From positions 2,232,001 through 2,296,000 of the forward strand of contig CP154954.1 of NCBI GenBank assembly GCA_039621445.1: 64,000 nt of DNA, in the 5' to 3' direction. The notes beneath the pieces are model-generated. The model saw only the letters and a program-made list of their open reading frames with translations. It did no database searches and was not told the origin of the DNA. This document shows, in pieces, positions 19,201 to 48,300 of the stretch (positions are counted from its first letter, which is position 1; the number at the start of each line of letters is the position of its first letter). This DNA comes from Euglena gracilis (taxonomy: Eukaryota). The position numbers were made by a program, and so were the translations under genes.

Positions 19201-19830
19201 AGAATGGCGTAACCCCGGCAATGTGATTTTGGCCAATGGGGGTTGGTGGGGGTCTGGCTGGGGCTGGTGACGATGCTACTGCGGTTGTTGCCACCGAGGT
19301 TGGTGGGGGTCCCGCGAGGGCTAGTGACGATGCTGCTGCGGTTGTTGCCACTAAGGATGAAGAGCTGGCACCCAAAGGGAGGTTGGAGAAGTTCAGGAAG
19401 GGCGTCGCCTGATTTGCTTGCATCCAAATGGCCCCAACATCTGACGGGGGGAAGGGTCCTGGTCCTTGTGTGCCAATTGGGTTCTCCATGATGACCGTGG
19501 AGCACATTGAGGGGAGGCCTTGTTGGCCAAAGAACAATGGACCCGGCAGATTTGGGAACCAAGATCCCCTTTCCAATGGTGGCACTGCGGGTGGTGGTGC
19601 GGATGGGGGGATGGAAATTTGTGATGCTGGCGCCATGTCAACGTCCTCACCCGACACCGAAGGGTGCTCTGCGGGCGGTGGTGCAGTAGGAGTGATTGAG
19701 GTTTGTGATGCTGGCGCCATGTCAATATCTTCACCCGGAACAGATGGTGGGGTTGTAGGAGCCCGGGGTTACTCTCAATGTCCCCACAGGTCAGTAAAGA
19801 CCGACCTCGGCCTGCCCCTCCCGATGCTGG
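16244..19830 (-). pseudogene. 2A-RT-RLE polyprotein, frameshifted, catalytic RT core deleted
   Basis: GRGRSLLTCGDIESNPG (~19762-19815); LWAFPKAVL, APGPSGLRPDHL, RPIAAGETLRRLVGK, LQVDFRNAFN; QQGDP-YLDD segment missing near 17950; CPKC..GHHLVCC, QPGDIF..VAVDVT. Confidence 0.88.
17399..17642. mobile_element. MITE with 3-bp TSD (AAT)
   Basis: TIR ACCACCACCCCCCCCCCCTAATTGACC; TSD at 17396-17398 and 17643-17645; removal restores the LSGI|RET reading. Confidence 0.9.
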
Positions 19831-20896
19831 TAGGGTAGGCTGTGTGCTGTCTTTCGCAGAAACGTAAGGCAGCAGCACTTTTATTTGTGTCGCCGACGTT
19901 GGGTGGTTTCTTCCGGTCAGCGGAGACGGAACCTGGGGGTTGTCCGGTTTATTTTGCTGAGGTGGGAAGGTTGCAGCCCAGTAGAATCCGGCAGAACTGG
20001 CTGGCTGGGGGGCCAATGTTGCAGACCAAAAAGTGGATGTGCTGTCTGGGTGGGGGGCCACTGTTGCAGTCCAAAATGTGGAGGAACATGGTTTGCCAGT
20101 TTGTCGGGGGCTTTTCAGGCTGAGAGCAAAAATGGTGTCAGGGGGGGGGGGCTTTGCAGGCCCATGGCCTTTGCAGGCCACTGGGACAAAATGCTACAAC
20201 AGGACAAAAAGGTGTCATAGGGGGGCCTTTGTAGGCCCAGGGCCTTTGCAGGCCACTGGAGCAAAATGGTGTTGGAAGGGGGCCTTTGCAGGCCCAGGGC
20301 CTTTGCAGGCCACTGGGGCAAAATGGTGCAACAGACCGAAATGGTGTCACAGGGGGGCCTTTGCAGGCCCAGTGACTTTGCAGGACACTGGGGTAAAACG
20401 GTGTCACTGAGGGGTTGTGGTGGCAAAATGTTTTCCAATGTCAAGTCAAAACTGCTGCAAAGTGTCACTGAGGGGTTGGGGTGGCAAAATGTTTTTCAAT
20501 GTCAAGTCAAAACTGCAGCAAAATGTGTCAGAGCTTTTGGTGTAACATGTGCTGTGAAAACTGGGGGTTTGCCACTTCAATTGATCAGAAGTTTGGGATG
20601 CAATGCAGAACACCGAAAAGAAGACACTGGAGCTGAAAGTTCCACTTAATGGTTGGCAGATGGGGGGCCTTTGCAGGCCCAAAGGGGGGGGCCTTTGCAG
20701 GCCCAAAGACTGGGGGGGCCTTTTCAGGCCCAGGGTCTTTTCAGGCCAGTGGCCAGTGAAGGGGCCTTGTAAGGCCCTGTAGCAGGGGGGGCCTTTTCAG
20801 GCCCAATACAGCCAACAGCAGCATGGTGAAGTTCTGCAGCAGCAAGACCAATAAGGGCTGAGAAGCCCAAGGACTTGGGTTCTTGAATGTCTTGTC

Positions 20897-22338: not shown

Positions 22339-22342
22339 CAGA

Positions 22343-22466: not shown

Positions 22467-22512
<46 letters not shown>

Positions 22513-25071: not shown

Positions 25072-26190
25072 GTGAACCGCGCCTGGACTCTTTGCCTCCC
25101 GCCCTCCCCAGCCCTGTGCCCTGCCAACAAAAGGGGGGGGGCAGAGGTGATTCCGGTGCAGAAAAAACCCCGGACGACCAACCCACCCAAAAAGCCAACC
25201 CCTACCCCACAAATCGCCAGAATCCTGGAAAAACTCAGGAATCTTACCCCCCGGGACAAGGCCGAGCTCTCACAGGTGGTGGCAAAAAATCAGGCAGACC
25301 GAGCCGCCCGGGCAAAAAATCGCCCCCCGCCAGCCAGCCCGCTGACAAATGATGTGGTGGATGCGGACGACTGGTCCGTCCTCTCCGCCACCGAAGAATC
25401 CATCGCCGGTGAGTGGGCCGGTAGGGCACGTAAGTACAAGAAGCCTCTCGTAAGGCAATGGCTTACAGAGGTGCAGACAGCCGTACCTACTCCCCCGCCC
25501 TACGCTCCGGGGCGCACGTGGTCGGACCTGGGTGATGACGACGTCGAGCTCATCCTGTATTGCCTTTGTGCTTCGGAGGCCCGGCGGAAGGAAGGGGGGA
25601 AAGCCTGCTGGGGCATTTCAGGGACCAATCTGCTTTTCCTTGCCCGGGAGAGGGAAAACCATCGGAACATCCTGAACTGCGGCGACATCGAGCAAAACCC
25701 TGGACCATCTCCCATGGGGCCAGCGAGCCAGCCGCACCTCCTCACGCCGGATGAGGTTTGGGAAGAAGTCTACTGGAACCGCCAACGCTGGAGGTGGGCA
25801 CGGATCCGCCAACCAGCCATAGACGGCCCGTCGTCTGCCTCGACCACAGCTCCTCCTCGTCATGAGGGGAGAGAATACGCCAAGTGCCTGCTGTGCGGCG
25901 AATTCTTCGGCCTAGACTCTCTTCCGGCACTGGAGTCGCACCGATGCCAGACGGGCGAACAGGTGGGAAATATCTTCTCCATCCCATCAGTGAGGGAGGA
26001 TTCATGGAGGTGGGATCTAGAGCATCTGGAATCCTTGCCAAATGGAGAGTGGTGGTCGATCCGATGCAAAGTCTGTGGGTGGTCGACAGAGACACCGTAC
26101 CCTTCACCCATTGTGGAGCACCTACGCACCTGCCAGCCACCTTCTCTGTCCGACGGTGAAGAGGAGAGCAGCGACGAATGGGAACGATGA
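25072..26190 (+). CDS. Polyprotein N-terminal part: 2A peptide plus two CxxC...HxxC zinc-finger-like motifs
   Basis: RNILNCGDIEQNPGP (core 25681-25707); CLLC...HRC and CKVC...HLRTC; acidic tract continues in the next frame. Confidence 0.7.
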   Translation: MNRAWTLCLPPSPALCPANKRGGAEVIPVQKKPRTTNPPKKPTPTPQIARILEKLRNLTPRDKAELSQVVAKNQADRAARAKNRPPPASPLTNDVVDADDWSVLSATEESIAGEWAGRARKYKKPLVRQWLTEVQTAVPTPPPYAPGRTWSDLGDDDVELILYCLCASEARRKEGGKACWGISGTNLLFLARERENHRNILNCGDIEQNPGPSPMGPASQPHLLTPDEVWEEVYWNRQRWRWARIRQPAIDGPSSASTTAPPRHEGREYAKCLLCGEFFGLDSLPALESHRCQTGEQVGNIFSIPSVREDSWRWDLEHLESLPNGEWWSIRCKVCGWSTETPYPSPIVEHLRTCQPPSLSDGEEESSDEWER

Positions 26191-26557
26191 CGACGACGAC
26201 AGCGACAGCGGCGACCCCAGCGGCCGGAGCCCTGGCTCGTTCACCCCAGCCGACAGCAGCGGAGCTGCAACCTTGGTCGTGCAACCCCAGACACCGGCCG
26301 GGGCCACGGACCTTGGCCTATTAGGTGGCAGACACTCGGCGCACGGTAAACTCCACCATCGCACACCCGCCCCACTCCCATCCCATCTGCCCGCTGCGCC
26401 ATGGGGCTCACAAGACGCCCCGAGAGGACGGTCCACCACCTCCAGACACCGTGGACACGCGGCCGGCTGCTACCCCATGGGGGCTTCCCCACGGGCACAG
26501 AGCGGCAGGGGCGCAGATATCCTCACTACGGGAGACGTGGAGAGCAACCCAGGCCCC

Positions 26558-27000
26558 ACCAACGCCGGGCGGGTTTCTGCCGACCCCTCCCTCCCGGCGC
26601 CGCGCGAAGACTTTATGCTGGACCCGCAGTGGTTCAATGCGGTGGTACGGGCACTGTCGCCCCATAACCCGCCCACCATCGACGCCTTCGCCGACTACAA
26701 CAACAGTCAACTGGATCACTTTTGGTCGCAAAGGGATGATGCCTTCCTCCAGAACTGGAACCTGCCAAACCCTCTGTGGTGCAACCCACCTTTCTCCCTG
26801 CTCCCCCGTGTTTTGGAACACGTCCTCCGCCAAGGGGGCAACATCATTCTCCTTGCACCGGAGTGGTCCACCGCACTAGCCGCCCTGCGGCGCATTTCCA
26901 CGGACTATTTGACCTTGCCGCGGTGCCCTATCTACAGGGCCCGAGGGACAGCGCTACTGCCGGCTCCCGCATGGACGACCACTGCCCTGCGGATCTGCCA
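26558..27000 (+). CDS. N6-adenine DNA methyltransferase domain (phage Dam / DIRS MT type) within ORF 26042-28405
   Basis: EDFMLDPQWF...TIDAFADYNNSQLDHFWS..DDAFLQNW...LWCNPPFSLLPRVL...IILLAPEW; SAM-binding motif followed by NPPF at 26783-26794. Confidence 0.85.
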
Positions 27001-27547
27001 CTCAGGCAGCAACCCCTCATGCGGCGCCCTGCTCCCACCGGGCCTCCACCATGGAGCCGACAGCCGGCAACGCCTGCCACGCCATGCGTGCGCCCCTTAC
27101 CCGCTCGCACCGCTCCTCTCCCCAGGGCAGCAGCGCCTTGTCAGAGCACGTCGATCCACCCATGGCGGCGAAGTCTTCCACCTCGGGGATTACGCCGGCC
27201 GGACGTTCCTTGTCTACCATAATGCCCTTTGGGACATCCGGGGTCCCTCCCCCCGTTGGTGCCAACGCTGTGGGTTGTGGCAATGGCCATGGGACTGCCC
27301 CACGCTACTCCCCCAACATTTCGCCGCTCCCAAACCACCACTCCTGCGCCCAGCTTTCCGGTTGACCCCCACTCCTCACTCCCTCCTCCACAAGCCACGG
27401 GCACCACCGGCTCAAGAGGCTGCGCCCATCTCCCTGCCAAAAAACGGCCTTGGTAGTCCACCCACGAGCGGCGTTCGCGTGCGGAGGGCACACCGCGGAC
27501 GAGGCAGCCTCCTCACCTGTGGCGATGTGGAGGAGAACCCGGGGCCA

Positions 27548-30500
27548 GCCAAGCGCCCGGCCCCCCTGTCACCTCGCGGTGCACCGGCCGCGGCAGATGC
27601 CCGGGACCACGACCACCTCTTCTTGGACCTGGCTCACCCAGAACACGACGCCGCGGTGGTCATTGATAACGCGGGGCAGGAGTCCAACCTCCGGGGGCAG
27701 CCCGCGTACAACCTTGTCGTGGGCCCTTCCCCATGCGACATCACCCACGTACTACAGCAAAAAATCCCAACCCTCATTCACCTTCCCTCCGCCTGCCAAC
27801 AACCTGTCTTTGACACCATGGCAGATGTCATCAACACATACGCACTCGCACCCTCAGACGCCGCTTTATTCGGCGTGCTCTCCTTCCCAAAGCTCGTCCT
27901 CCGGCCGGCGTCAACCACGAAACCGCCCCCAGCAGCGGAGCTGGAGTCCATCCTGATGAGGCGCACCAAACTATTCCGCGAGGGAGACTACACCACCCTT
28001 TTGACGGAAGCACTGAAGGACACGCAGACACGACATTCCATCGTAGAAACCAGGGCGGAAAAACGCTCCAGAACACGGCCGACTGCCCTCAGTGAGGCGA
28101 TAACGAGACGGGTACGCACCCTCACTGCAGAAGGGGCGTCCGCGAAGGCAGTCCAAATACTGCTCTCCGAGGGCGCGCACCAACCAGACGACCCAGACGT
28201 CTGGGTTGCCCTGGAGAAGCTGCATCCTGCCGGCATAAATGTCGACACCAACCGCCTCCCGCGACACATTAGGCCATTCCCTGAGAACCACACCCCGCCC
28301 GGAATGGGAGGACAGGCTGAAGGAGGCCATCCGCCGATTCCCGCGGGGATCTGCACCCGGACCGTCTGGACTGCGGCCCAGCCACCTCCAAGATTGTCTG
28401 CGTAGGCCGGGCCGGGGAGCAAAGCTGATCACTGCCCTGGCGCGGCTGACTCAGGTTTGGGTAGACGGCCAGATACCACCGCACCACGCTGCGGCCTGGT
28501 GCTGCGCGAATCTGACACCTCTCCGTGAGAAGGACAACGGGGTACGACCGGTGGCGGTTGGGGAAACCATTCGGCGCCTGGTGGGGAAGACGCTGCTCCA
28601 GACACGAAATGCCCGGTCTGAGGTGGCAACACTCGCCCCCACACAGGTCGGGGTAGGGGTACGAAACGCGGCCGAAGCCGTCGCCCTGGGCATGCAACAC
28701 CTCGTCATGCAGCTGGGGGATACCTCGCCCTGGGTTTCCCTCCAGGTGGACTACTCCAACGCTTTTAACACATTGGACCGCGGCGCGATCCTCACAGAGG
28801 CTGAGACACGCACCCCCAGCCTGTACAATTTCCTAAGGTTTGCATACAGTGGGCCCGTTCCCCTTTTCTGTGGCGGCCGTTCCATCCTGTCACAACGGGG
28901 GACACACCAAGGCTGCCCTTTGGGCCCCATCGGGTTCGCCCTGGCGCTGCAGCCGCTGCTGGAGCAGATTACCAGGGACGGCCAGCTGCTATGGAACAGC
29001 TGGTACCTGGACGACGGCCTGCTGGTCGGGACCCCGGACAGGATTGAACACTGCCTACGTTTCCTACTGCAAGAGTCCCACCGTGTAGGTCTGGGCCTCA
29101 ACCTGCAAAAATGCGTCATGTGGGGCCCGGGAGCGAGGAGCACGCCCAGCTGTGACAGAATGCAAGTAGTCCCTTGGGCACAAGGGGAAGGTATCACCGT
29201 CCTTGGTATCCCAGTTGACCACCCTGCGTCCTCGGACACTACCAAGACAGCGTGGGAAGACGCCGCCGCCAAAATCGAAAAGGCCTCCTCTACCATTACT
29301 GCCCTGACCGACGCCCAGGTAGCGCATCACCTGCTCCGGAGCTGCCTGGACGGCTGCAAGGTGAACCACCTCCTGCGTGCGTCCAACTCATATGGCAGTC
29401 CAGACCAAGTAAGGAGCTGATCGGAGGTGATCATGAACGCCTTCGAGGATGTTCTGGGCACTTCGCTGAATTCGCAACATCGGACCCAGGCCTCGCTGCC
29501 CCTATCCAGTGGCGGCTGCGGCCTCCGCATTCCGTCCTACACTCAGCCTGCAGCAAGGATCTCCTGCCTCGCAGACTTCTACTCCGATGGGGCCCGGCGA
29601 GTGGGTGTGCCCGACTACGCAACCGGCCCGCAACTGTCCCTTGTCACGCCCGCATTGGACGACCTCAGGGGCAGGCTGGGAGCGAATCATGCCACAGTTA
29701 CCGCTTTCCTCAACAACCCACAGCGAATTGCCTCCGCGGACCAAGAACCACGGAAACAAAAGTGGTGGAACCATGAGCTGGGCAAGAAGGCAATGGACGA
29801 CCTGGTGGACCAGGCCCGGCCCCGGGACCAGAACCGCCTCCTTGAACAGGCCACGGGGTTTGGACACGGCTGGATGGCGGCTACCCCCTCGCACAACTCC
29901 CACACCACCTTCTCCAGCGAGGAATACACCCTGGGACTGAAATGGTGGCTGGGTCTCCCGGTTTTGAATGACATCAGCCAGCCGTGCACAGGATGCGGCC
30001 AGCCCCTGGATAAGGAAGGCGACCACCTCCTCTGCTGCTGCAGGAACAACTTCGCAACCCGCCACAACGCTGTTCAGGAGGCCCTATTTTAAACCTTGTC
30101 CAACAGCGGGCAGCGGGTGCAGAAGGAGGTTTCACTCCCGACGGCCCGAGACAGCCATCTCCGCCCTGCGGACCTCCTCCTGGACTGCTGGTCTGAGGGG
30201 AAGCCGACGGCGCTGGACGTCACCGTCTGCCACGGTTGGCAGGCAACAGAACACGCCGCAACCCGGGAACGCTGGAGATCCTTCCTGAAGAGGAGGGAGG
30301 ATGCCAAAAAGCAAAAATACAACATCCCATGTCAGCAAGCAGGGTGGGGCTTCACGCCTTTCGCCCTTGGCACATGGGGCGGCATGGGACCGGAAACGGC
30401 CAAGACACTAAGCAGAGTCGCCAAACGCGCCTCGTCCTGGCAACAGGGCGCCGAGCGCGAAACCAAGGAGGCGGAAACATACCAAAATGTGGCCATCGCC

Positions 30501-30551
30501 CTGCTCCGAGAGGTATTCCACCTCCTACAACCCAAGCACTTACTTCGTTAA
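27548..30551 (+). pseudogene. RT-zinc knuckle-RLE module (frameshift ~28300, stops at 29418 and 30088)
   Basis: APGPSGL, LQVDYSNAFN, GTHQGCPLGP, WYLDDG, CTGC..GDHLLCC, RPADLLL..ALDVT. Confidence 0.92.

Positions 30552-30622: not shown

Positions 30623-30624
<2 letters not shown>

Positions 30625-30709
<85 letters not shown>
30625..30709. repeat. (CA)n microsatellite after a ~48-bp tandem duplication spanning the stop codon
   Basis: Seen directly. Confidence 0.9.
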
Positions 30710-30711
<2 letters not shown>

Positions 30712-31360: not shown

Positions 31361-34300
31361 TCACCTCGGGCGGGTGCACTGGATGCGAATGGGGCCGACT
31401 AGGGTCCCATCCTCGGCGTGACGCACTCTTTGCCATCCTTCCATGTCCACCGCCGCCACTCCGGTGGCTCCTTGTATGCTCCTGGTTCTCGACGGCATCT
31501 CTTGCGGCGTGGCTGTTGGAGGTAACTCCTCTTGCCCTCTGGTTGTAGCGGCGGCAGAGAGCTGTTCCGCCACAAAGGCCATCAAGGTTGCGGATATACG
31601 TTGCCAAATGTCTGCGGCCATGTGCTGCCTTGCCCATCCTTGCTTGTCACCAAGGGCTTGCTTCACCAGACGGCCAAGGAGACCAGACCCCAATGGGCCC
31701 AGGCCTGACCACGGATGGAAGGACAGAGGGCTGAATAACCATCCTGCGGCTTCACATACCGGTTGGTTCTTCGTGACCTTCTTGTGTTCCATTGCTGCCA
31801 TGTTCTTTAAAGCAATAATCTCGTCCCACGACAAATCTTTCCGGAGGGGGTGGAACACTACGAGGTCGACTGCCAACGGCCCCACAGGGTCAACCCCTTG
31901 TAGGGCGACATCCGCTGGGCGCATCTTCCCACCGATGGCCACCTCTGTCTTGGTGTGCACACCATGTTCTCTGAGGACCATTGCCAGCGCGTCCCGCACA
32001 GCGTTGTGACGTTGCACGAGTTTGTTCTTTTTGCAGCATAGCAGGTGGTCCCCAAAGGGATCCATGGAGTCCCCACACAGGGGGCAAGGAGCACCAGACG
32101 AGCCCGGGAGGACCTTGGCGCCGAGCCACCATCGGAGGAGGAGGCGGTACGGTACTTTGTTGCTGGGATTTTGGTTCCCATGCCTTTGTTTGGTATCGTT
32201 TGGAGCCAGGCGGTTGTATGGGGCATCGATTGCAGTCGGAGGCGGCATTTGTCTCGTTGTGGCAAGATGTTCTTCAAAGCTTCTTTCCTTGCTTGGTGCA
32301 CTTTGTCTGTCCACCATTGCTGCCTTCTGTGGTCTTCTTCAACGTCCGATGGTTGATTCTTCTCAATCCAATCTGGCAGTGGCTCGAACTGAGGGCCGAG
32401 TGTGCCACGCGAGATCCACGGCCACCTTCTTGAAATCAGGGGGCAAGGCGCAGGCCTCGGGCGGAAACCGTAACATTTGTGACCGCTGTTGTGCACATAG
32501 AATCCCTGCCATTCTGGCCGGTGCTTGGAGGACGAGGGGATCCTTCACCCCGAGGCCGGCCATGCGTAGGGGGAGTGCACACTGTGTCCATTGTGCATCA
32601 TTTGATGCCGGCTGGCCCATGATGTCATCCCAGGTCTTCCGGATGATCCGCGCCGCTGCTTGGATTGGCTCCTGTAGGGTGTCCATGTTCATGGTTCGTA
32701 GGAAATGCATCACCTTGCAGGCATCAAGACAATATCGCAAGAGCACATGCTCAACCTGAGGATCTCCCACGTTGGTGAGGACGTGACATGCTTCTTGGAG
32801 CTTGTCCACTGCCCCTTGCATCTCGGCTTTGCGGAAGGATGTTGAAAGTGGGTGTTCCACTGGGAAGCCGAGGACCCGCAGCCCGTGGTCTGGCATCCAC
32901 GGTACCCGCGGAATTGATCGCAACAAATCGAAATGGCTTCCATTTGATGTCGGTGTCTGTGCAGGACCCCACAGGCGGCATTTTTGGAGGTTGAGATGCA
33001 CGCCAAGATGTGCAGAACTCACGCTGATGGATGCCAATGCTGCCGCCAAGGTGTCCATGGAACCCACCAGGTGACCATCATCCAGATACCACACGTTCAT
33101 CTTCAAATCTTTGGGCAGCGCCAGGACCACATCTTGCCACGCCAATGCAAAGAAGAGGGGACCCAAAGGGTCTCCTTGCTGCACTCCTTGCTCACTCGTC
33201 ATTCGGTGTCCATGGTTGTAGAGGGCGGAGTGCTGAGCGTAAGACAAACGTGCCCATGCCTCAAGCTCTGGGGCCCGAATGCGTACTGCTTTCAGGAGGG
33301 CTTGCCGGTCAATTGCGTTGAACGCGTTTTGTAGGTCCACTTGCAGGATTGCCCATGCATCTCCTTGGCCGTGTTCTGCAAAGGATTGCACCCCTTGGGC
33401 TATGGTCTCACAAGCCCCTTCGGTGGTGACTCCACATTGATGCGGGTGCAGCTCTGATGCCCGTTGCTTGACACACGGTGAGGTCATGGCGAACTTGCCT
33501 ACAAAGCGGCGGAGGGTGTTCCCCACTGCAATGGGGCGAATGTTCAGACTGTCATTGGGGCCGTCCTTCCTCAATGGAATCAAGGTGGCCGATGAGATGA
33601 AGGGCATTGCTTGTGATGGCAGTGACCCTTCCAGGGCCGCTTTGGAGAACGTGCGCAGCGCTGCCAACACCATTGCCGCTGCACCGGCGTCCACACGCAC
33701 TACATCCTGGAGGTGTTGGGGTCGGAGTCCATCAGGGCCTGCAGCGGCTGCTCTTGGAAAAGAGAGTAACGTCTCACGGAGAAACTTATTCAAGTCATGC
33801 TGCTCTTGAGAGGATTCCTCCTTCGGGAATGGAAACACTTTGGAGACAGGCTCCACAAAGATGACTTCTGGCCTTCTTGGATGCAGGTCTCTGAGCTTTG
33901 CCTGCACCTTGTGGTCCAACGGATCGTGCAACCCATCAGACATGAGATGGCGCACCGCCTTGCCAAATGCTCCATCTTCCATCAAGCCCCGCAGCGTGTT
34001 CAGGAATGGGGCTTCCTGCAGCCTGTCCACTTTGTCCTCTAGGGATGGGGATGCCGTGCTTTTTTGCTTCTTGCGGTCCGGCCGAGGAATGCCTTGGCGA
34101 AACTCGTCCCACAAAGAAGCCAGGTCACCTGCCTTGAAGCGATCAACTCGTGATCTGATGAGTTGGGCGGCTTGTCCCTTGTGGCCCTTGCCACCTCGAG
34201 GCGACCAGAGGGTCACCTTTTGAAACAGGGCCCAATCTCGGAGTGCCTCCCACGATCGTTCAGAGCAGAGGCGCTGTTGCAGCTCAGCCCAGGCCACGCC

Positions 34301-35827
34301 CCACAATGTGACAGCCGCACGCGGGATGTGCCGGAACAGGGGCCTTGTGGTGGACAGAATCTCGTGAATTGCTGATGACATAAGCGCATTTGGGGCGTCC
34401 AATGGTGTGGATGGAGGCATGTGGTTGCTTGACGATGAGCTCGCGGCTGCATGGGCCGGTGGTGGGTGGCTTGCCGGCGGGAGACGGGTTGGGGTGGAGT
34501 CCGGTCGCACACGGTAGCAATTCTCACTTGCACACCGTTTGCCTTCTGGGAGGAGCTTGAGGCAATGTCCACACACCCAGCGTTGTGCGTCCCGCAACCA
34601 AGCAGACGAAGGCATCTCTCCTGCGGCGACGTGGACCATTGCTACATGGTTTGTGGCGAGCCGCTTTGTGTTCCATCCTTGAAAGCTGTGTCGGAGGGAC
34701 TTGCAGCAGTGAGGAAACGGGCAATGGAAAAGGCCTGGGCCCTCTTCCTCGGAATCTGAGGAATCTGGACCGCGTTCTGCTCTTCGCTTACGTGCCCGGT
34801 GGTTTGGTCCTGCTGATGCGGAAGCTGCGGAGGAGGCGGACGGTGGTGGAGGCGCCAGGTTGATGACCGCTGCTGATTGATTCACCGCCATGAAAGCTGC
34901 CCCTGGATCTGAAGGCGAAGTCGGCCCTGGATTTGACTCGACATCTCCATCATTGCAGAGGTCCCGCATCCATGAACTTTGTGCTTGAAATGAGGACACT
35001 TGAAGACCTGGATCGCAAATGTGGAACCATGGAGGGAAAGCCAGGGAGGGGATGGAAAGGGGACGAATGGGGATGGGAGATGGGGGCGAAAGGTAGCTCG
35101 GGATCGTGGCGATTGAGGTTGGTGGGCGAAAGTGAATGGTGGTGGGTGGACCGTGGCGGGGACGGGGTTGGGCGCATCTTGGGGTGGGAGGGGGGGGCGA
35201 GCCAGCAGTGGGGACTGCGGCAGCACCATGGGGAGGGTCAGGCCCGCCCGGGCTCACCGAGGGAGAGATCCTTGGTGGCGTCTCCCTCGGATCCTCGCCC
35301 AACGTAAACCCCGTCACGGTGGGGGCCAGCCTGCTGGTGCTTTGGGGCGCTGGGGGGGACGGGTCCGCGGGATGGCCAGCAGAGGGGACTGCGGCAGCAC
35401 CATGGGGAGGGACAGGCCCGCCCGGGCTCACCGAGGGAGAGATCCTTGGTGGCGTCTCCCTCGGATCCTCGCCCAACGTAAACCCCGTCACGGTGGGGGC
35501 CAGCCTGCTGGTGCTTTGGGGCGTTGGGGGGGACGGGTTCGCGGGATGGCCAGCAGTGGGGGCTGTGGCAGCACCATGGGGAGGGACAGGCCCGCCCGGG
35601 CTCACCGAGGGAGAGATCCTTGGCGGCGTCTCCCTGGGATCCTCGCCCAACGTAAACCCCGTCACGGTGGGGGCCAGCCTGCTGGTGCTTTGGGGCGGTG
35701 GGGGGAATGGGGCTGCCCTCGGGGGGGAGGCGCAGGGAGACTCGCCCGGGCTCACCGGGGGTGGGATCCTTGGTGGCATCACCCCCGGGTCACGGCCCTT
35801 GCTACTCACTGGTTGGGCGCATCTCAT
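31361..35827 (-). pseudogene. CRE-like retrotransposon polyprotein: Pro-rich repeats, 2A, zinc fingers, RT, RLE (frameshifts near 32400 and 32190)
   Basis: DLCNDGDVESNPGP (34922-34948); CPFPHC...HVAMVH; AAGPDGL, LQVDLQNAFN, GVQQGDPLGP, WYLDDG; CPLC..GDHLLCC, RPADV..LAVD. Confidence 0.92.
35205..35700. repeat. 174-bp (58-aa) in-frame tandem repeat, about 3 copies, upstream of 2A
   Basis: QSTSRLAPTVTGFTLGEDPRETPPRISPSVSPGGP repeated. Confidence 0.9.
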
Positions 35828-36139
35828 AGTGGGGGCGTCCCCCTCTGGGGGCCCTGGGCGGCGGGCGGGGCGGGGCGCCTCTTGACAAATGGGTGGATCA
35901 GGGGCGTCCCCCTGTCCTGGGAAGGTTGGAAGGGGTGGGAAGGCGGGGCAGGGAATGGTAGGCAGGGGCGGAGATGACTGGAGGTGGACGTTCAGATTCG
36001 TATTGTGAATTCAATTCTGATGAATTAGGAATACCCAGATTCGCGGGATTCGCGGGGAAAAAACCCTGTCGGAGTTTTGGTGACCGGATTAAAACCGCGA
36101 AATTTCCGCCCTGGAAACCAAAGGCCCCTCGGCCCCTCG

Positions 36140-38222: not shown

Positions 38223-38353
38223 TTCGCATATCATGTCGGACAACTGAAAGCCCCTGGTGGGGTTCAAGCTTTGAATTACTTGAAGTTCCAACCTACAACT
38301 CAAGTCATTGAACTGTTGAAGTTTGTCTTGTTTGCTGTTCAAGTGTTTTCAAA

Positions 38354-41300
38354 TTGATCGACTGCTGTTCAAGTGTTCAAGCCTGGTGTCAGCCTTCTTC
38401 GTGGAGAGTGCGGGCCCACATTGTTTGCACCAGCAGCAGCATGTTTACCAGCTGCAGCTCCCGGACACATGGGGTCCACATCGATGGTACCAGCACCAGC
38501 ATTCCCAGCTGCAGCATTCAAGCCCTGGGAGATCCAGCCCCAGGAGAGTTGTTCACCATGGAGCCCAAGGAGCTGAAGCAAGATGCAGCAGTTGTCGAGC
38601 CCATAATGGCTCCCACTGCAGCTGCAGCAGGCACAGCCACTACAACTGGCGTAATCATGGTGAACTTTCTGATCTTCAAAGTTGCCTTGCCCAGTGTGTT
38701 TCACATTTCCCAAATTCCGATGATGCAAGAAGGGAAAACCATGCAGCGGGCTTCCAAAAGCCAGCAGCATTTGTCAGCCCCAAAATTACAGCAGGAGTTC
38801 AGCCCTGGAGTACCAGCCCAGGAGTTCGCCCCTGGAGTACCAGCCCAGGAGTTCAGCAATGGAGTACCCACTCAGCATTTCACCCCCCCGGTGCCAGCGG
38901 GGGAGACAAACCCTGAGTGGTCAAACCACAAGTTCAGCCCTGGAGGATTAACCCAGGAGACAGAGCTTAAGACATTCGGCTGGGAACATAAATGTTTTAA
39001 TTCCCATGGTTCCAAGACATTCCAACTCAAGCTGTCTGCCTTCCTGCCCCGCACCTCCCTGTCGTCACGTCGGTGTAGGTGTAGCTTTGCCATTTCACCG
39101 GGCAGGTTCAGGGAAAACAACCGTCGCAACGCCTGCTCTTATCCGAAAACAAGACAAGGATCAATGCACGTTTACGCAGAAAAGAACGCTGCGTCAGATC
39201 CGACAAAAGACCACTCGCCGCAGCGCCAAGACACCTTGGCAGCCCGTACCCATTCCCGGTCGGGGGGCGGCGCTGACCTCATACCGCTTTGGAGAAGGAT
39301 GGCACACAAAAAAGGCCACCCCCGCTGGAGGTGCTGGCGGAAATCACCAAGGCCACCACCGTTGTCTTCGACTGTTCCAAAACGGCCCCCACCCCGCCGA
39401 ATTGTGGCGGGACGCCGGAATCGGCCAGCACGAATGTTCAGGTCCCGTGGCACACGGGGACCTCTGCCCATCGGCATCGGCCATCACAGTTGCTTCATTA
39501 TGACGACCCGGTGGAGCCCGCTCAGATGTCCACAGGGGGGGTTCTCGAGGGCGGCGGACACCAAAAAGCGGTCCTCGTCCCGCCGAAATGCGGCGGGAGG
39601 CCGGAAACAGCCAGGCCGGATTCTCAGGTCTCGTGGCACAGGGGAACCACTGCCACCCGGCATCGGCCATCACGGTTGCTTCATTATGACGACCCGGTGG
39701 AGGCCGCTCAGATGTCCACAGGGGGGGTTTTCGAGGGCGGCGGACGCGAATAAGCGGTTCCCGGCCCGTCGAAATGCGGCGGGAAGCCGGAAACAGCCAC
39801 CCCGAATTTTCAGGTCCCGTGGCACACAGCGACCACTGCCTCCAAGCAGCGGCCTTCACAGTTCCTTCAAAATGACGACTCGGCGGAGCGCAGAGCTGGC
39901 TGGCAGGGGCAGCCTATTGAGGTGCGGTGCCATTCACGTACAACCGGTGCCGAAAGCGAGGTTTGGGTGCGCACAAGCACGGGCAGTGGGTAAACCGGGA
40001 AAAACGGGTCGCGGCAGTCTCCTGTCCTGTGGAGACGTCGAGAGTAACCCTGGTCCCCCCTCAGGGAAACCGGCTCCGCCGGGGGGCCGCAAACGCCCAG
40101 CTGCACCCCCGGCACCGCGGGCTGACGCGTCAACGGACAACGCCACTGACCTCGCCCACCCCGCTGACGACACCCCGGCCGCCATGGTGGTTGACCCCAA
40201 CGGCAACAACAGCGACCTCCGACACGTCGTCCTCCCGCGCATCATCGTGCCGGCAGCGCCGACTGGCCTGCAGGACATCTTGTTGAGCCGGGCAAAGACA
40301 GTGCTCCACGTGCCCGCCGGAAACCAGCGTGATGTGTCCGAGACCTTGTGCGACACCATCCTGGAGTACGTTGCCAGGCCAACGAATGACACCCTTTTCG
40401 CGGTGCTGTCTTTCCCCAAGCTGGTCCTGCGCACCGTCCCCACCGGAGGGAGAGAAGCACAGGAAGACATCTCCTCTGCAATCACGCGGCGGGTCAAATT
40501 GTTCAGGCAAGGCGACTACAGCACCCTCTGGGATGAACTACGTAACGCCACTAAACTGCCCCCTGTGGCTGTGGAGACCCGCGCCGCGAAGAAGGCTCGC
40601 ACCGTGCCAGCAGCAATCCCTGAAGCCACGCTCCGGCGAGCACGCACGCTGGTTGGGGAAGGGGCGCCAGCGAAGGCCCTCCAGGTCCTCCTCTCCGAAG
40701 GAACCCACCGCGCAAGCGACCCGGCTGTCTGGGCCAAGCTGCAAGCGTTACACCCCGAAGGGAAACCGGTAAACTTGGACACTGTCCCACGACGGGTACC
40801 CCCTTTCCCGGATGGACAGCAAGTGCGGTGGGAGGAGCTCCTCCGCGATGCCATTCTTCGCTTCCCCAGAACATCGTCGCCTGGACCGTCGGGGCTACGT
40901 CCTTGCCACCTCCAAGATGCGGTTCGTCGGCCAGGCCAAGGAGCACGACTGCTAACTGCGCTGGGGAAACTCACGTCGTCATGGGTGGATGGACAGCTCC
41001 CCAGCGACCACGCCCCGTGGTGGTGTGCCGCCAACCTGACGCCGCTGCGGAAGAAAGATGACGGCGTGCGACCCATAGCTGTCGGGGACACCATTCGCCG
41101 CTTGGTGGGCAAAGCGCTGCTCCACACCGGCCCCGCCAAGGACCAAGTGGGCAAGCTTAGCCCGTTGCAAGTGGGTGTCGGAGTGCCCAACGCAGCCGAG
41201 GCCGTCTCTCTAGCAACGCAGAGTCTGATCAGAAAGCTGAGTCCTCAAGGAAATTGGGCGGTTCTGCAGGTGGACTTCAAGAACGCCTTCAACACCCTCC

Positions 41301-43087
41301 ACAGGGGAGTGCTGCTCCGTGAGGCAGAAACCCGCGCGCCGGCACTGTTCAACTACCTGCGGTTCGCGTACGGACAGCCGGCTCCCCTGTTCAGCGACGG
41401 CCGCACGCTACCATCCACCAGAGGCACGCATCAAGGGTGCCCCTTGGGGCCGATCGGCTTTGCTGTTGGCCTGCAGTCCATCGCGGAGGCTATCAGCACC
41501 CAAGCAGAACTGCTGTGGTCCTGCTGGTATCTGGATGACGGAATCCTCGTAGGAGAGCCAACGGTTCTTCAGAAGTGCCTTGACTACCTACGCAGCGAAA
41601 GCAGTCGCACTGGGATACAGCTTAATAATAATAATAATAATAATCTGGCCAAGTGTGTCCTGTGGGGACCAGCAGCAGCCAGCCTCCCCGACCGAGAACT
41701 TCTGAAAATGGTGCCCTGGGCCGAGGGGTCCGGAATCACGGTCCTGGGCTGCCCAGTCGACTTCCCCAGCTCTGCAGACCACACTGTCGCCGCCTGGGCG
41801 GAAGCAACTGAAAAGATCGAACAAGCTGCTGACCTCGTTACTTCGGTCGCCGATCCCCAGTTGGCCCACCATCTCCTCCGCTACTGTCTGGACGGCTGTC
41901 GCGTAAACCACCTCCTGCGTGCCTCAGATTCGTACCTAGCGCAAAGCGAAGTCTCACGCTGCGGTGAGACCATCTTCAGCGCCTTCGAAGATATCCTGTG
42001 ACAGGCCCTGAACGCGGATCAGCGGCTACAAGCAGCGTTACCGCTCTCAGTGGGCGGCTGCGGCCTCCGAATTCCGGCGTCCCACCAAGGCGCCGCCCGC
42101 ACTGCAGCCTTATGTCAGTTCTACACACACGGCCACAAGAAGGTGGCATGCCCTGACTACGCTGCCGCCCCAGACGACCGCACTTGCCAGCAAGCCGCCC
42201 ATGACTTATGTTCCACGCTAGGAAATCGTCACCCAGAAAGCAGTCGCCTAGCAAACTCCGCCGCCTTCGCTTGCGCCTCAGGAAACGATACCTCCCAACG
42301 ATGGTGGCAAAAGGAGTCTGCCAAAACCACTGTGGATGCCTTGGTGGACAGGTCAGCCCCACGTGACCAAGCACGGCTCCTGGAGCAAGTCAACGGCATC
42401 GGGCACGGGTGGATGGCGGTACCTCCCCACGAAGCGCTGCACACTGTCATCGACCCGGCAAACTACCGATTGGGACTGAAATGGTGGCTGGGCTTGCCAC
42501 TAGCGGACTCTCCAACCATCTGTGCTGGTTGTCAGGCCACCGTGGATGTCCATGGCGAGCACGATCTGTGCTGCATTCGCAATAACTTTGCGAACCGCCA
42601 CAACGCCGTTCAAGACGCACTTTTCAACATCTTGTCAACGAACGGTCAAAGCGTGCAGCGCGAGGTCCCGGTGCCGAACCAACCCGACAGCTCGCTGCGG
42701 CCGGCTGACCTGCTTCTAGCTACCTGGCAGGATGGGAAGCCCACGGCAGTGGACATCACCATCGCCCATGGCTGGCAAGCTGCCGAAAGGCTGGCAACTC
42801 GGGAACGGTGGAGGACGTTCCTTAAAAGGAAGGACGTCGCCAAGCATACTAAGTACGACACTCCCTGCCAAAACGGGGGATGGTCCTTTGCCACCCTGGC
42901 CATGGGGACGTGGGGTGGCCTTGGACCCGAAAGCGCAAAGCTGCTAACCCGAATTATCAAACGCACCACCTCATGGGATCGCGGAGACATCGGTGCCACG
43001 CGCCAGGCCGAGAGCTACCAGCTTCTGGCGCTTTCACTCTTCCGGCAGCTTGCGCAAATGCTGCGCCCGAAACACATCCTACGCTGA
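38354..43087 (+). pseudogene. Leader-2A-RT-RLE polyprotein with one in-frame stop (41999-42001)
   Basis: GRGSLLSCGDVESNPGP (core 40031-40057); LQVDFKNAFN, GTHQGCPLGP, WYLDDG; CAGC..GEHDLCC, RPADLLL..AVDIT. Confidence 0.92.
39390..39890. repeat. 186-bp in-frame tandem repeat, about 2.7 copies
   Basis: ATGACGAC recurs at 39500, 39686 and 39872. Confidence 0.85.
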
Positions 43088-43949
43088 AAGCGCTTGTCCC
43101 CCCTCTTCAACACCTAGACTGAGCACGACGTCTGCCATCTTGTCGCGAGCTCCAAGGCAGCGGCAGCCAAATCAAGTCCCAGCATGCACCACGGCGGCTC
43201 ATCCCCGCATCACCGCCAAAGGCCAATCACCACCAGGACGCCACCACGAACCTTGACGCTTCTCTCCCCAACCGCCCGGCCGCGCAGCCTCCCCCTCCCC
43301 AGCATCCATCGGCCGCTAAGGCCCCTTCGTCCCCGCTTACCATTCCCTGACAATCAAACCCCTTCTGACTATCCATGGGGTTTCCCCATCTGTACATAGC
43401 TTCCCCCTCTCTGAACACTCAAATCCAGTCGGCAGTGCCACTGGTCGGTGGATTCGGTTTCTCCCACCACCGTGTTCACCCGCGACCTATCCCCTCGGTA
43501 CCGAAAATTATTCTTTACTGCAGGGAAATATTTGGGAAATATTTGGCGACGGCAAGTTTTTACTGACTTCTCTGGGCATCAAGCTCTCAGAGGTGTGCCA
43601 AACAATTCTGTCAGGGAGTTCATCTTTCCCTTCTGCAGATCACAAGGCAAGAAATTTCTGAAGTGTATCATGCAGAAGTGGATGAGGCGCTGTTGCAGAT
43701 GATTTTCACCCAGCTGAAGCTGAGACGAAGCTGAGACACTTTACACAGATGGCTTGAGATGATGGACCTGTTAGAAGGATTTGTTACTAATCTGGACCTG
43801 AGCGTGTCCGTGCTGCTCCATTTTGTTCTGTGTTTTTGCTGTTGCTGTGCCTAATAAAAGTCGAAGGTTTTTGTCTGTCCATTTTTTTTTCAACGTCATG
43901 GTAATCTAGGTCAGTCTGATTTGATTTTCAACGGTTTGATTCACATCTT

Positions 43950-44160
43950 GTGGCCAGTTTTGGGCCAGATCTGCTGGCCAGTTTTGGGCCAGATGTGCTG
44001 GCCAGTTTAGGGCCAGGTGTGCTGGCCGTTTTTGGGCCAGATGTGTTGGCCAGTTTTGGGCCAGATGTGGTGGCCAGTTTTGGGCCACAGGTTGTGGCCA
44101 GTTTTGGGCCACAGGTTGTGGCCAGTTTTGGGCCACAGATCGTGGCCAGTTTTGGGCCAC
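43950..44160. repeat. 24-bp minisatellite
   Basis: TGGCCAGTTTTGGGCCA(GAT/CAG)GTG units. Confidence 0.9.
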
Positions 44161-44807: not shown

Positions 44808-44861
44808 TCAAATCCAGTAGGCTGCGCCACTGGTCGGTGGATTCGGTTCGCCCCACCACCG
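44808..44861 (+). other. Conserved 54-nt retroelement 3' terminus without an adjacent ORF
   Basis: TCAAATCCAGTAGGCTGCGCCACTGGTCGGTGGATTCGGTTCGCCCCACCACCG. Confidence 0.8.
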
Positions 44862-44929
44862 TTCCGTCCAGAACGCCTTCAATGCGGTGGATCAGCACCA
44901 GCGGCCGTTCCTTCTGAGCGTCCATGTTC

Positions 44930-44954
44930 CTTTCTGAGTGTCTATTTTTTTTCG
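44930..44954 (+). other. Euglenid spliced-leader exon copy
   Basis: CTTTCTGAGTGTCTATTTTTTTTCG. Confidence 0.88.
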
Positions 44955-44968
44955 TCTCCACATGAACA

Positions 44969-45328
44969 GGGGGTGTTCCCCCCGCAACCCCCCCGCAACC
45001 CCCCCCGCAACCCCCCCGCAACCCGACCGGAGGCCCAGTTCTGGGAAAATTTCTTTCGGGTGGGAGATGCCTAATTTTGGTTAAAATATAGTTGTCGTGC
45101 ACATTTTTGGCTCCAATCAGGGCAAATGGTCAAAATTTTGGGTTGGCGATGCCCAATTTGGAACCGAAATCCTAACTTGATGTGTGGGAATGCCTAATTT
45201 TTGGTGGCATCATCCAAATTTTGCGACTTGGTGATTCCTAATTTTGACCTGGAAAAATCGGTTTTTCCCCCGCAACCCCCCCCGCAACCCCCCCGCACCC
45301 CCCCCCCCCCGCAACCCGCCTCACCCCC
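44969..45328. mobile_element. MITE with 3-bp TSD (ACA) and (CCCCCCGCAA)n subterminal repeats
   Basis: Termini GGGGGTG / CACCCCC; empty-site equivalent CATGAACATGTCGGAC at 50218-50233. Confidence 0.85.
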
Positions 45329-45349
45329 ACATGTCTGACAAGCGGGCGG

Positions 45350-48300
45350 GTGGCCCGTAAAAGTCCACTGCAGACCCCCAAGGAGACGAAGTTTACAATC
45401 AACAATTGTCAAATTGATTTGATCGCTGCAGTTTCTGCTGTTCATCTAATCTGGAGTCAGCCTTCTTGGTGGAGAGCAAGGTCCACTGATTGCAGGGTGA
45501 GGTTCAGCCACCCAGCAGCAGCACATCGACTCAAGCCCTGGGAGATCCAGCCCCAGGAGAAGCAGGGTGAGATTCAGCCACCCAGCATCAGTACATCAAC
45601 ATCTGCGACCCAAGCCCTGGGGGATCCAGCCCCAGGAGAATTGTTCACCATGGAGCCCAAGGAACTGAAGCAAAATGCAGCAGAGGTCGAGCCCATAATG
45701 GCTCCCACTGCAGCTGCAGCAGGCACAGCCACTACAACCACAACTTGCCCAATCATGCTGAACATTCTGATCATCAATGTTGTCTTGGCCCATGTGTTTT
45801 GCATTTCCCAAATTCAAATTCACATGGTGGAAGGGAAAAACATGCAGCGGGCTTCAAACAGCCAGCAGCATTTGTCAGCCATGAATCTACAGCAGGGTGA
45901 GACTCAGCCACCCAGCACCACAGACCCCACACATTACATCTCTGTACCTGGACCTGGGACATCCTGTGCACCCAGTTCCCCCCCAGAAGAATCTTTCCCA
46001 GTCTGCCCTGGAGAGTTGGCCCAGGAATTCAGCCCTGTCGTGCCCGCCCAGGGATTCAGCCCCTCAGCAACAGCCCGGGAGCCAAACCCTGGAGTACCTG
46101 CTCAGCATTCCACCCCCTTATTGCCAACGGGGGGGGCAACCCCTGAGGGGTCAACCCAGAACTTCAGCCCCGGAGGATCAACCCAGCAGAAGGTGAGTGA
46201 AACATTCGGCCTGCAGTGTCAATGCTATAACCCTGCTGGACTCGATTTCAAAACTTTCCAACTGAAGCTGTCTGCCTTCCTGCTCCGCATCTCCTCATCG
46301 CACACTGTGGTCTTCAAAGTGGTTTTAGCCCACACCGCCTCATGCCATGTTCCTGGAGCAAAAAAGCCATATCTCTTCTCGGCACTAAGGAATTCCTTGG
46401 CCGTAAGCTACCACTGCCGGTCGGGCAGAGGTGACGACATCCTGACATCGGGCGACGTGGAAGCAAACCCGGGACCCACCCCCCCGGCGGATCCGCTAAC
46501 GGGATCCATGGATATCGACCTGACTACGGACCCCACAAGAGCGGTGGGGTTCTTACTGGCCACAACACAGGTGCCTCCTTCCGCCTTAGGCCCAGTGGAA
46601 GAGACCTCGACGCAGGACGCCCGGGACCTTCAACAACTTCTTCAGGCCCTTCTCAGCCGACCACCGCCAGAGGCCGCTCTCCCCTCCATTGATTCAAGAA
46701 CCACGACCCGCGGCCCAAGCGCGCTGCAGGACGACCAGGACATGGGGATGGATTTTATCCCCGGCATGAAATGTGGCGCCCCCTTGACTTCTCCTTGCCC
46801 GGATTTGTACCCGCCCTGGACCGAAATTTCTTTGGACTCCCGTGGGACGGTTTCGAACATCCCGAAGGGGGCCCTCCCAGCGGTCTCGGATGCGTATTCC
46901 ATGATCCTGCGCGCGTTCAATGACAAGCCCACGTGGGAAACTCTGCACGCGCTTTGGGCATTCCCGAAGGCTGTGCTGGCCCCTCTAGGAAAGGGCGGCC
47001 GAGGGCATTGGGCCCGCTTGGGCCGGGTCATTCGCGGCAGGGCGGAGGCATTTTTGAGGCGGGCGGTGGCGGAGAGTTGGAAGGACTCCATCCGTTTGCC
47101 ACAGTTGAGCCAAACGATCCGCACGCGGGGCCAGGCTCGCCGTGAGGAGGAAGTGCAGGAGGAGGGGTTTGTTCGCCGACTTGAACACCTGGTGGGCAAG
47201 GGTGCAGTTGGCAAAGCGTGCCAATTCCTGCTGTCTGATGGGGTGCAGGACAACAAAGACCCCATTGTTCGCCAACGCTTGAAGGATCTCCACCCTTCCG
47301 AAGAGCCACCCGGCCGAGGGCCACCGGACAAGCGGAAAGGTGTGCCGCCGCCTTCCGATGAGGACGAAAGGAGGGACCGGCTGTCTTTGGTGCGCAAGGC
47401 AGTCTTTAGCTTCGGAAAGGAGTCCGCGGCGGGCCCATCTGGGCTAAAGCCGGATCACCTGAAAGATATGCTGAGCAAAGAGGCAGGAGGCCAGGCACTC
47501 CTGGAGGGACTCACGACCTTCGTGTACAGGTGCATCAACGAGGGATGGCCTGCCGGTGCGGCCGAGATTCTCACATCCGCACGCCTCACGGCCCTGCGCA
47601 AGGTGAAGCCGTCGACTACCGTAGACAACGCGGGAAATCTCATCCGCACCTCACTGGATCCCGCCCAAGAAGGCACCCGCCCCATCGCCTCGGGCGAGTG
47701 TCTAAGGCGACTCGTGGGCAAAGTCCTGATGCGCCAACCCGCTGTCCGGAAATTCACGCTGGAAGGGCTGCCAGGACAGTTCGGTGTGGGCTGTCCGGAC
47801 GCATATGGGCTCATCGGGATGGGCCTTCAACACGTTGTCACAACACTGCACCAAGGAGGGTCCCGAGATTGGGGAATTCTGCAACTCGACTTCTCCAATG
47901 CGTTCAATTGCATCCGACGAGAAGCCCTCTTGGAGGCATCGCGAGAACGATGTCCCGAAATGGTGACATGGTTGGAGACCTGCTACGCTGAGCACTCCAG
48001 CTTGTTCCTTAGTGATGCGTGCCTTCGAAGCGAAACGGGAGTTCAACAAGGGGACCCGTGTGGACCAGCTGCCTTCTCTCTCGCAATCCAAAGCCTTGTG
48101 GAGGAAATACATGCAGTGTGCGGATGGCAAGCATGGTATTTGGATGATGCCCACGTCGTGGGGAACCTGCGCCAACTTGAAGCGGTAGTACACCTCGTGT
48201 TGGAGAAAGGACCCCTCATTGGTGTTGCCTTGAATGCCGAGAAGTGCACACTGTGGGGCCCCGCCTTCAACCCAGACTGGGCATCTCTCCCGCCCGGGAC

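Follow-up and report, generated by a model that had tools for sequence, protein, structure and literature searches.

A 64,000-nucleotide stretch of the Euglena gracilis genome (assembly GCA_039621445.1, contig CP154954.1, positions 2,232,001 to 2,296,000 of the forward strand; referred to here as the window and numbered from its first base) carries five long retrotransposon copies, E1 to E5, in which a 2A, or StopGo, peptide stands upstream of a module made up of a reverse transcriptase (RT) and a restriction-like endonuclease (RLE). It is suggested here that all five are members of one old clade of R2-like retrotransposons that have only one open reading frame (ORF), and that this ORF is a polyprotein punctuated by StopGo sites. 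Judging from the sequences and their homologues, we put the probability of this reading at roughly 0.8. The elements were delimited from long stop-free frames and their translations, and their coordinates are collected in Table 1.

Seven 2A motifs ahead of the reverse transcriptase

A six-frame scan of the whole window for D(V/I)ExNPG, in which the trailing Pro was scored separately, gave seven matches, six of which are followed by Pro. Summed over 200 mononucleotide shuffles of the window there was not a single match, and this rules out chance occurrence. The scan reproduced exactly all seven motif positions listed in a first-pass annotation of this DNA, and the frames and translations bear out the view taken there that a 2A precedes the RT in all five long elements. 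Every site lies inside an ORF that runs on downstream in the same frame, except in E1, where the core is followed by Leu and the frame homologous to RT opens at 19768, 2 bases off the frame of the 2A. The displacement fits a putative frameshift at or just past the Gly/Pro codons, in line with the first-pass annotation, which had placed one at the Gly-Pro junction of E1.

All seven motifs have the class A core D(V/I)ExNPG, and the peptides, of about 18-22 residues, resemble proven 2As in having a Leu-rich upstream part. An upstream part of the GRGxxLLT/S type is common to E1, E4, the second site of E2 (E2b) and E5, while the first site of E2 (E2a, with NILNC) and the site of E3 (W-type) differ from it. 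The third site of E2 (E2c) is of special interest with regard to known 2A peptides. Translation of 27497-27547 gives GRGSLLTCGDVEENPGP, 17 residues that are identical to the C-terminal 17 of the 18-residue string EGRGSLLTCGDVEENPGP, which occurs in 61 papers and which we take to be the T2A of Thosea asigna virus, and with that identification the 17 of 18 matching residues previously reported for this copy are confirmed. Across the seven copies each invariant residue of the motif is spelled with two to four different codons, from which it follows that the peptide has been conserved and not the DNA. The same residues are thus kept with differing codons although RT identity between the elements is only about 30%, and this conservation as protein supports the first-pass interpretation.

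Table 1. Positions of the elements, 2A peptides, modules and 3' boxes in the window
Feature	Position	Strand	Description	Basis
E1 2A	19759..19812	-	GRGRSLLTCGDIESNPG, then Leu; core GDIESNPG, 19762-19785; RT frame shifted from here	scan, shuffles, translation
E2a 2A	25654..25707	+	ENHRNILNCGDIEQNPG, then P; core GDIEQNPGP from 25681	scan, shuffles
E2b 2A	26504..26557	+	SGRGADILTTGDVESNPG, then P; core GDVESNPGP from 26531	scan, shuffles
E2c 2A	27494..27547	+	HRGRGSLLTCGDVEENPG, then P; core GDVEENPGP from 27521; last 17 residues as in the presumed T2A string	scan, shuffles
E3 2A	34922..34975	-	W-type, SSWMRDLCNDGDVESNPG, then P; core GDVESNPGP, 34922-34948	scan, shuffles
E4 2A	40004..40057	+	TGRGSLLSCGDVESNPG, then P; core GDVESNPGP from 40031	scan, shuffles
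E5 2A	46424..46477	+	SGRGDDILTSGDVEANPG, then P; core GDVEANPGP from 46451	scan, shuffles
E1	16238..20193	-	decayed, several frameshifts; leader remnant, 2A, RT-RLE remnants
E2	25072..30515	+	decayed multi-2A copy, at least two frameshifts and one stop
E3	31550..36010	-	repeat-bearing leader, W-type 2A, N-terminal zinc-finger region, RT, RLE; RLE in another frame, below 32363
E4	38312..43473	+	composite leader, 2A, RT-RLE, 3' box 43357-43473; single in-frame stop in RT-RLE, 41999-42001
E5	44930..50198	+	5' untranslated region (UTR), leader, 2A, RT-RLE, 3' UTR ending in 3' box; limits about 44930 (5') and about 50198-50200 (3'); only copy with an uninterrupted ORF, 45248-49861	contig joints, box alignment
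E5 leader	45650..46474	+	275 codons, from ATG (ACCATGG) to Gly of NPG	frame openness, homology searches
E5 RT-RLE protein	46475..49861	+	1128 aa from the skipped Pro (predicted); RT motif YLDD 48137-48154; CCHC 49148-49201; RH 49220-49237; nuclease motifs PGD 49313-49330, IDVTV 49364-49387, K 49457-49471	Pfam RVT_1, profile, motifs
E2 Dam module	26555..27544	+	predicted Dam-type N6-adenine methyltransferase, 330 aa, NPPF, 2A on either side	Pfam, alignment
2A relic in E4 leader	39257..39316	+	decayed, E5-type, RSGGGADLIPLWRRMAHKKG; DNA aligns to E5 2A
3'-terminal box	50115..50198	+	conserved, about 85 nt, ending ...CCCCACCACCG
Further 3'-box copies	43357-43473, 36797-36877, 44775-44863	+
Further 3'-box copies	15445-15561, 54408-54524	-

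Class of the elements

Pfam matched RVT_1 in E2, E3, E4 and E5, and found no apurinic/apyrimidinic endonuclease (APE; Exo_endo_phos) domain in any ORF of the window or in the 12 related proteins that were scanned. The E5 sequence taken singly had no match in PDB, but when a family profile of 20 sequences was used the best matches were solved R2 proteins (E=1.2e-41). The alignment of this profile to R2 (9nl3_A) extends from the RT fingers through the CxxC...H...C, RHN and PD motifs to the DVTV...K nuclease, whereas ORF2p of LINE-1 was matched across the RT alone (4e-14). Residues C895, H905, C909, R917, H918, E939, D965 and K995 are invariant in the 20 sequences. Since the match to R2 proteins runs from the RT through the nuclease, the five elements are, by this R2-like architecture, RLE-type retrotransposons that lack long terminal repeats (non-LTR elements), a designation that is not a placement among R2, CRE, NeSL, R4 and Hero. 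Their RLE-type nature had been proposed in the first-pass annotation and is supported by the profile match, which includes the C-terminal CCHC and PD-D-K nuclease. The APE-type 'SymbioLINE' (de Mendoza et al. 2018) was considered and rejected, having another architecture with Exo_endo_phos, two ORFs and a DNA methyltransferase (DNMT).

In the RT-RLE, E5 shares about 30% identity with E2, E3 and E4 and, depending on the segment, about 42-51% with E1. Six more RT/RLE fragments are present in the window (3503-5117, 10629-13509, 24210-24838, 36142-36627, 51735-52454 and 62676-62816), but they align only from query residue 817 onward and cannot be scored for 2A because the 5' part is missing. Pfam identified no host gene among the 9 other ORFs of the window, Rfam found no RNA family in it and ARAGORN gave no match either. 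A dinoflagellate spliced-leader motif, which may not be that of the host, also had no match in the window.

Accessory modules separated by 2A

The order of parts in E2 is an N-terminal module, 2A, a CCHC zinc-finger module, 2A, a Dam module, 2A and RT-RLE. Its three 2As thus bound an N-terminal piece of 211 codons, a zinc-finger module of the form CxxC...H...C, a module of 330 residues and the RT-RLE. The 330-residue module is predicted to be a Dam-type methyltransferase. It scored 29.5 bits against Pfam Dam (PF05869, cut-off 28.1), the match covering only positions 26-72 of the 169 in the profile, and it is alignable along its length with the 2A-bounded modules of P0006, P0007, P0025 and P0031. 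These and the other relatives mentioned here are metagenomic proteins as called by others, and the clade-wide statistics given below rest on them. The NPPF motif, which has the catalytic form (D/N)PP(F/Y), is invariant among seven aligned Dam-module sequences, and a Dam module bounded by 2A was found in E2 and in P0006, P0007, P0025, P0030, P0031 and P0168. When the Dam module of E2 was modelled with AlphaFold2, the mean predicted local distance difference test score (pLDDT) was 46.9, too poor for a fold search. An SLBP_RNA_bind domain was found in P0006, P0007, P0009 and P0168, that is, in relatives only.

From the order of modules in E2 and its relatives, the predicted ancestral layout of the clade is a polyprotein in which an RNA-binding module, a zinc finger, Dam and RT-RLE follow one another with a 2A at each junction. 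The RNA-binding module may be a stand-in for ORF1. As E2 and six relatives carry 2A-delimited accessory proteins upstream of the RT, the primary role of 2A in these elements, and its original one, looks like the processing of a multi-protein ORF.

A different role could be envisaged, in which 2A is mainly a translational attenuator that leads to less RT-RLE or less total protein and does not serve to give the enzyme a clean N-terminus. Three serial 2As would compound drop-off before the RT is reached, and among tested 2A-like peptides of retrotransposons 59% of those associated with ORF2p and 70% of those associated with ORF1p are reported to have cut protein abundance instead of giving clean skipping (bioRxiv 10.64898/2026.06.17.732966). 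On the other side, E2c is identical at 17 of 18 residues to a peptide in wide use for efficient separation, and the sites are found exactly at domain boundaries in E2 and six relatives, a placement that fits separation. Attenuation overlaps with the polyprotein reading and is compatible with it; as the main function of 2A we consider it unlikely, though deserving of real weight.

Leaders of E3, E4 and E5

The accessory modules are absent from E3, E4 and E5. No Pfam family was found in the regions that precede the 2A in these three copies, and the leader of E5 had no homologue among 6112 candidates and no Atlas match. The leaders are open only in the frame of the 2A, over 409 codons in E5, 581 in E4 and 362 in E3, with stops in the three frames numbering 0, 15 and 9 in E5, 0, 12 and 11 in E4, and 0, 11 and 5 in E3. 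When each leader was subjected to 2000 mononucleotide shuffles, none remained stop-free for E5, none for E4 and two for E3. Tandem repeats are present in E3 (35201-35705, unit of 174 bp or 58 codons) and in E4 (39379-39889, unit of 186 bp or 62 codons), and, the units being multiples of three, a change in copy number leaves the frame intact.

The E4 and E5 leaders share about 700 bases at 74-85% identity, in spite of an RT identity of about 30%, and have a common ATG at 38558 in E4 and 45650 in E5. Before this ATG the internal gaps in the alignment are of 13, 5, 14, 11 and 1 bases and there is a 28-base end gap, whereas past it, as far as column 935 and the end of close similarity, they are of 6, 3, 129 and 6 bases; two further gaps, of 1 and 21 bases, are in the poorly aligned tail. 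The differences between the two leaders are divided 40/44/41 among the codon positions, and among the codons that differ the synonymous share amounts to 0.208, the neutral expectation being 0.216. In neutral simulations of this leader 199 of 5000 stayed stop-free. The leader appears to be translated, free in its sequence and constrained only to stay open. The first-pass annotation had supposed that 2A frees the leader to vary. This stands insofar as the leaders are radically different and E4 and E5 have changed neutrally with the frame open, but it does not describe E2 and the six relatives, in which 2A-delimited accessory proteins and not a free leader are found upstream.

The leader of E4 also contains two 2A relics, both of them upstream of its complete 2A. 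One is of the E5 type (Table 1) and the second, GRGSLLRCGAIHVQPVP, beginning at 39902, is a partial duplicate of the 2A of E4 itself. It appears that a decayed 2A may be tolerated where a working 2A follows. The orphan leaders of E3-E5 look like a derived state.

It could be argued instead that the leader of E3-E5 is untranslated, that the RT is reached by internal or downstream initiation and that the 2A is a relic of a multi-module past. Leaders without relatives or domains, and an E4/E5 portion that is neutral at the amino-acid level, would be expected in that case. However, it is then difficult to see why 362-581 codons should be open in the 2A frame only, why indels should be multiples of three past the ATG, up to the end of close similarity, and not before it, and why the 2A cores of E3-E5 should be complete when the relic 2As upstream in E4 have decayed. 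We consider an untranslated leader improbable.

Distribution of 2A among relatives

A word-indexed search gave 11 proteins at E <= 0.001 among 8000 scored candidates, and a full HMMER scan gave 10377 cluster representatives at E <= 0.001, of which 702 were at E <= 1e-30. The four best proteins of the word-indexed search are 40-48% identical, and three of these (P0006, P0007 and P0009) have three 2As each. NPGP was present in 11 of 161 database relatives. When only the 35 relatives that reach at least 20 residues past the predicted 2A position are taken into account, 12 have a 2A, with P0006/P0168 and P0031/P0171 among them as near-duplicate pairs.

An RT tree was made by quick IQ-TREE with support from the Shimodaira-Hasegawa-like approximate likelihood ratio test (SH-aLRT) only. 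Its 39 rows comprise the five window copies, 31 of the 35 relatives and three distant matches, the relatives left out being the cluster mates P0171, P0181 and P0184 and a 272-residue fragment, P0136. One clade of 14 rows (SH-aLRT 96) contains all five window copies, and 13 of its members have a 2A. The presence of 2A requires 5 changes on this tree in comparison with a mean of 12.6 when labels are shuffled, and in none of 500 shuffles was the number as low. Outside the clade P0133 has one 2A and P0120 has GIHPNPGP and GVHPNPGP. In P0091 the only site is a decayed DLETNPGI, and it was counted as 2A under the looser pattern used for the tree. From this distribution 2A is, on the evidence of the RT tree, an old and largely retained trait of one clade and not of the wider family. 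It was also observed that P0133 and P0120, both distant RLE-type proteins, combine their N-terminal 2A-like sites with an MLLE domain of the poly(A)-binding protein (PABP) type.

Two types of 2A can be distinguished, a T2A-like type, (S/T)GRGxxLL(T/S)xGD(V/I)ExNPGP, and a Trp type, WxRxLxxDGD(V/I)ExNPGP, the latter carried by E3, P0009 and P0157. A relative usually has one type only, as in P0006, P0007, P0009 and P0157, and E2 departs from this in part, since its first site is of neither type. The occurrence of one type per element hints at a possible duplication or homogenisation of the 2A cassette within the element.

On another view the motifs would merely resemble 2A without being active, or would be pieces taken from an RNA virus, and would have no role in the element. 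This would accord with their high similarity to viral 2A and with 2A being commonest in RNA viruses (PMC12338488), but it is very hard to reconcile with motifs that, both in the five diverged copies and in 13 of the 14 members of the clade, are in frame with the RT, that keep their protein sequence while codons vary and that no viral domain flanks, so that we give this reading scarcely any weight. An endogenous RNA-virus fragment as such was likewise rejected, the motifs being in frame with the RT and no viral domain being present.

Proposed expression of the elements

According to the polyprotein reading, ribosomes would start at a 5' AUG, presumably the conserved one, and translate whatever upstream sequence is present. 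At each D(V/I)ExNPG/P the chain would be released without a Gly-Pro bond and translation would resume at the Pro, provided that skipping operates in the host as it does elsewhere. Since the last 2A is always ahead of the RT-RLE, this enzyme would be a separate chain starting with Pro, and the products encoded upstream would be made in equal or larger amounts. In full-length members the upstream 2As would in addition free the zinc-finger and Dam proteins (E2) and the SLBP-like module (relatives). In E3, E4 and E5 the accessory modules would have been replaced by orphan, repeat-rich leaders. Such a leader would drift neutrally where this can be measured, in the part shared by E4 and E5, and yet would have to stay open and in frame, being the only route by which ribosomes reach the RT.

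A wider interpretation is put forward more tentatively, at a little short of even odds. An ancient R2-like clade may have evolved an expression strategy like that of the picornaviruses, in which up to three StopGo sites divide one ORF into SLBP-like, zinc-finger, Dam and RT-endonuclease proteins, while stripped elements such as the intact E5 would have retained just their final 2A, preceded by a leader on which selection acts solely for remaining open and in frame. If so, no 2A clade of RLE-only elements and no lineage of non-LTR elements with Dam would have been described before, and it would represent a natural use of StopGo in uncoupling an enzyme from a neutral upstream coding region.

Several points weigh against these proposals, in addition to the loss of protein abundance reported for most of the tested peptides. 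Only E5 is intact and E1-E4 have frameshifts or stops, so that conservation of the motif in those four copies reflects recent ancestors. P0019 is in the clade and is without a 2A, 169 residues preceding its zinc finger, and beyond the clade 2A is sporadic, 23 of the 35 relatives being without it. The leader statistics come from the single pair E4/E5 and are of moderate strength (4% for remaining stop-free and about 1% for four of four indels in multiples of three). In an RNA run, X24, of which about 5% of reads were used, no reads were found on the ORF of E5 and reads were seen only on 3'-box regions. In a further two runs, presumed to be RNA, related copies were represented over the leader by a few contigs. 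None of these run data are counted for or against expression.

Comparison with known systems

The presence of 2A in retrotransposons is already well documented and it is the RLE-type setting that is new. Odon et al. 2013 (PMC3708506) describe 2A in L1Tc and ingi of trypanosomes and in CR1, L2, Crack and others of animals, all of APE type, which confirms what the first-pass annotation had stated of L1Tc/ingi and APE-type LINEs (long interspersed nuclear elements), and the REL-endo clades are listed there apart from the APE types reported. Those elements resemble the ones described here in having D(V/I)ExNPGP in frame near the 5' end of an ORF, ahead of the enzyme, where it was proposed to be a separator or tuner. 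They differ in their N-terminal APE, whereas the elements of the window have a C-terminal CCHC and PD-D-K nuclease without APE and as many as three 2As in one ORF.

In R2 a ribozyme releases the RNA of the element from a ribosomal RNA co-transcript. To our knowledge R2 has no 2A. The architecture of the solved R2 proteins (9nl3_A, 9dou_A and 8gh6_A), with RT, CCHC, RHN and PD-D..K, is the same as that found here. Unlike R2, the Euglena elements are proposed to use a long translated leader and StopGo, and no ribosomal DNA target was seen.

With T2A and other class A peptides the motifs share the GDVExNPGP core and the upstream GRGSLLTC, E2c being the closest at 17 of 18 residues (PMC12338488), and they differ in their setting, which is cellular and retrotransposon-borne. 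E3, P0009 and P0157 combine an N-terminal part with Trp-x3-Leu, like that of class B as given in a 2026 preprint, with a class A core. The release of successive proteins from several NPGP sites in one ORF is known from the multi-2A polyproteins of picornaviruses (PMC11512398). Those are polyproteins of RNA viruses, whereas here the RNA-binding and zinc-finger modules, the Dam methyltransferase and the RT-endonuclease would be the products.

Recent surveys point to a wide occurrence of 2A among the non-LTR-like elements of protists and algae, a feature shared by the elements of the window. About 2,200 predicted 2A peptides, up to three per eukaryotic gene and with class B in dinoflagellates, are given in one of them (PMC12338488). 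Another describes ORF2p-like proteins with 2A-like peptides from 16 species, among them Dualen/RandI of Haematococcus and an ORF2p of Symbiodinium (10.64898/2026.06.17.732966), and a third lists 330 class A 2A contigs with RT, most of them non-LTR-like (bioRxiv 10.64898/2026.09.24.754024). Prokaryote-like Dam domains carried by retrotransposons have likewise been described, in DIRS and in Ty3/Gypsy-like LTR elements (DAM-LTR; bioRxiv 10.64898/2026.05.21.726589). The carrier found here is of another kind, an RLE-type non-LTR element from which Dam is predicted to be released by flanking 2As. In the portions of the literature that were searched there was no RLE-only clade with 2A, no series of SLBP, zinc finger and Dam, no Dam in a non-LTR element and no neutral but open leader, although supplements of the surveys may list such proteins.

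RLE-type elements represent the oldest non-LTR lineages, and the usual account of them is that they code for a single multifunctional protein. The clade described here would instead make several proteins, an adenine methyltransferase among them, from one ORF by ribosome skipping. Its recognition would extend the use of 2A from APE-type LINEs to RLE-type elements and would add a new class of carrier for retrotransposon Dam enzymes. It may also offer a clean evolutionary test of the benefit of 2A, in which the sequence upstream can be swapped, duplicated or allowed to drift so long as the frame is open. The first-pass annotation had also seen in these sites a natural panel of new 2A variants. 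Variants do exist, but their practical worth as a source of 2A is small, thousands having been catalogued in the surveys of 2025-2026, hundreds of them on contigs with RT.

The 3' box and neighbouring repeats

The elements share a terminal 3' box (Table 1) that is about 90% identical between copies, although the RTs of these share only about 30% identity. It had no Rfam or tRNA match and its RNA fold was no better than that of shuffled sequences (z = 0.48). In a DNA run the summed contig depth was about 250,000-286,000 at the 3' box as compared with about 1,000-12,000 over the ORF. The elements adjoin one another's 3' boxes. Contigs of a DNA run connect 44930 with the end of a box (about 44861) across 12-36 differing letters, and one contig links 50200 to 44930 with 15 letters between them. 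These joints suggest that copies are often arranged head to tail, or have been inserted right after the 3' box of another copy. Within the 5' region of E5, 44954-45334 (about 365-381 bases) is skipped by other copies in contigs of runs X1 and X18, and either the window copy has gained this stretch or it has been deleted elsewhere.

A 24-bp satellite (GTGGCCAGTTTTGGGCCAGATGTG and variants) forms arrays at 11099-11413, 14201-14384, 37425-37585, 43942-44160 and 50822-51498, and these repeatedly lie downstream of element 3' ends, at a distance of a few hundred bases. Two recent segmental duplications, both of which include RT/RLE fragments, were also found, one between 12750-15725 and 51695-54688 (97.7% over 3 kb) and the other between 12172-12843 and 24144-24814 (99.4% over 672 bp). 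At 15075-15133 there is a 59-base homopolymer of C (89% matches), and at 30624-30709 a perfect (AC)43 microsatellite.

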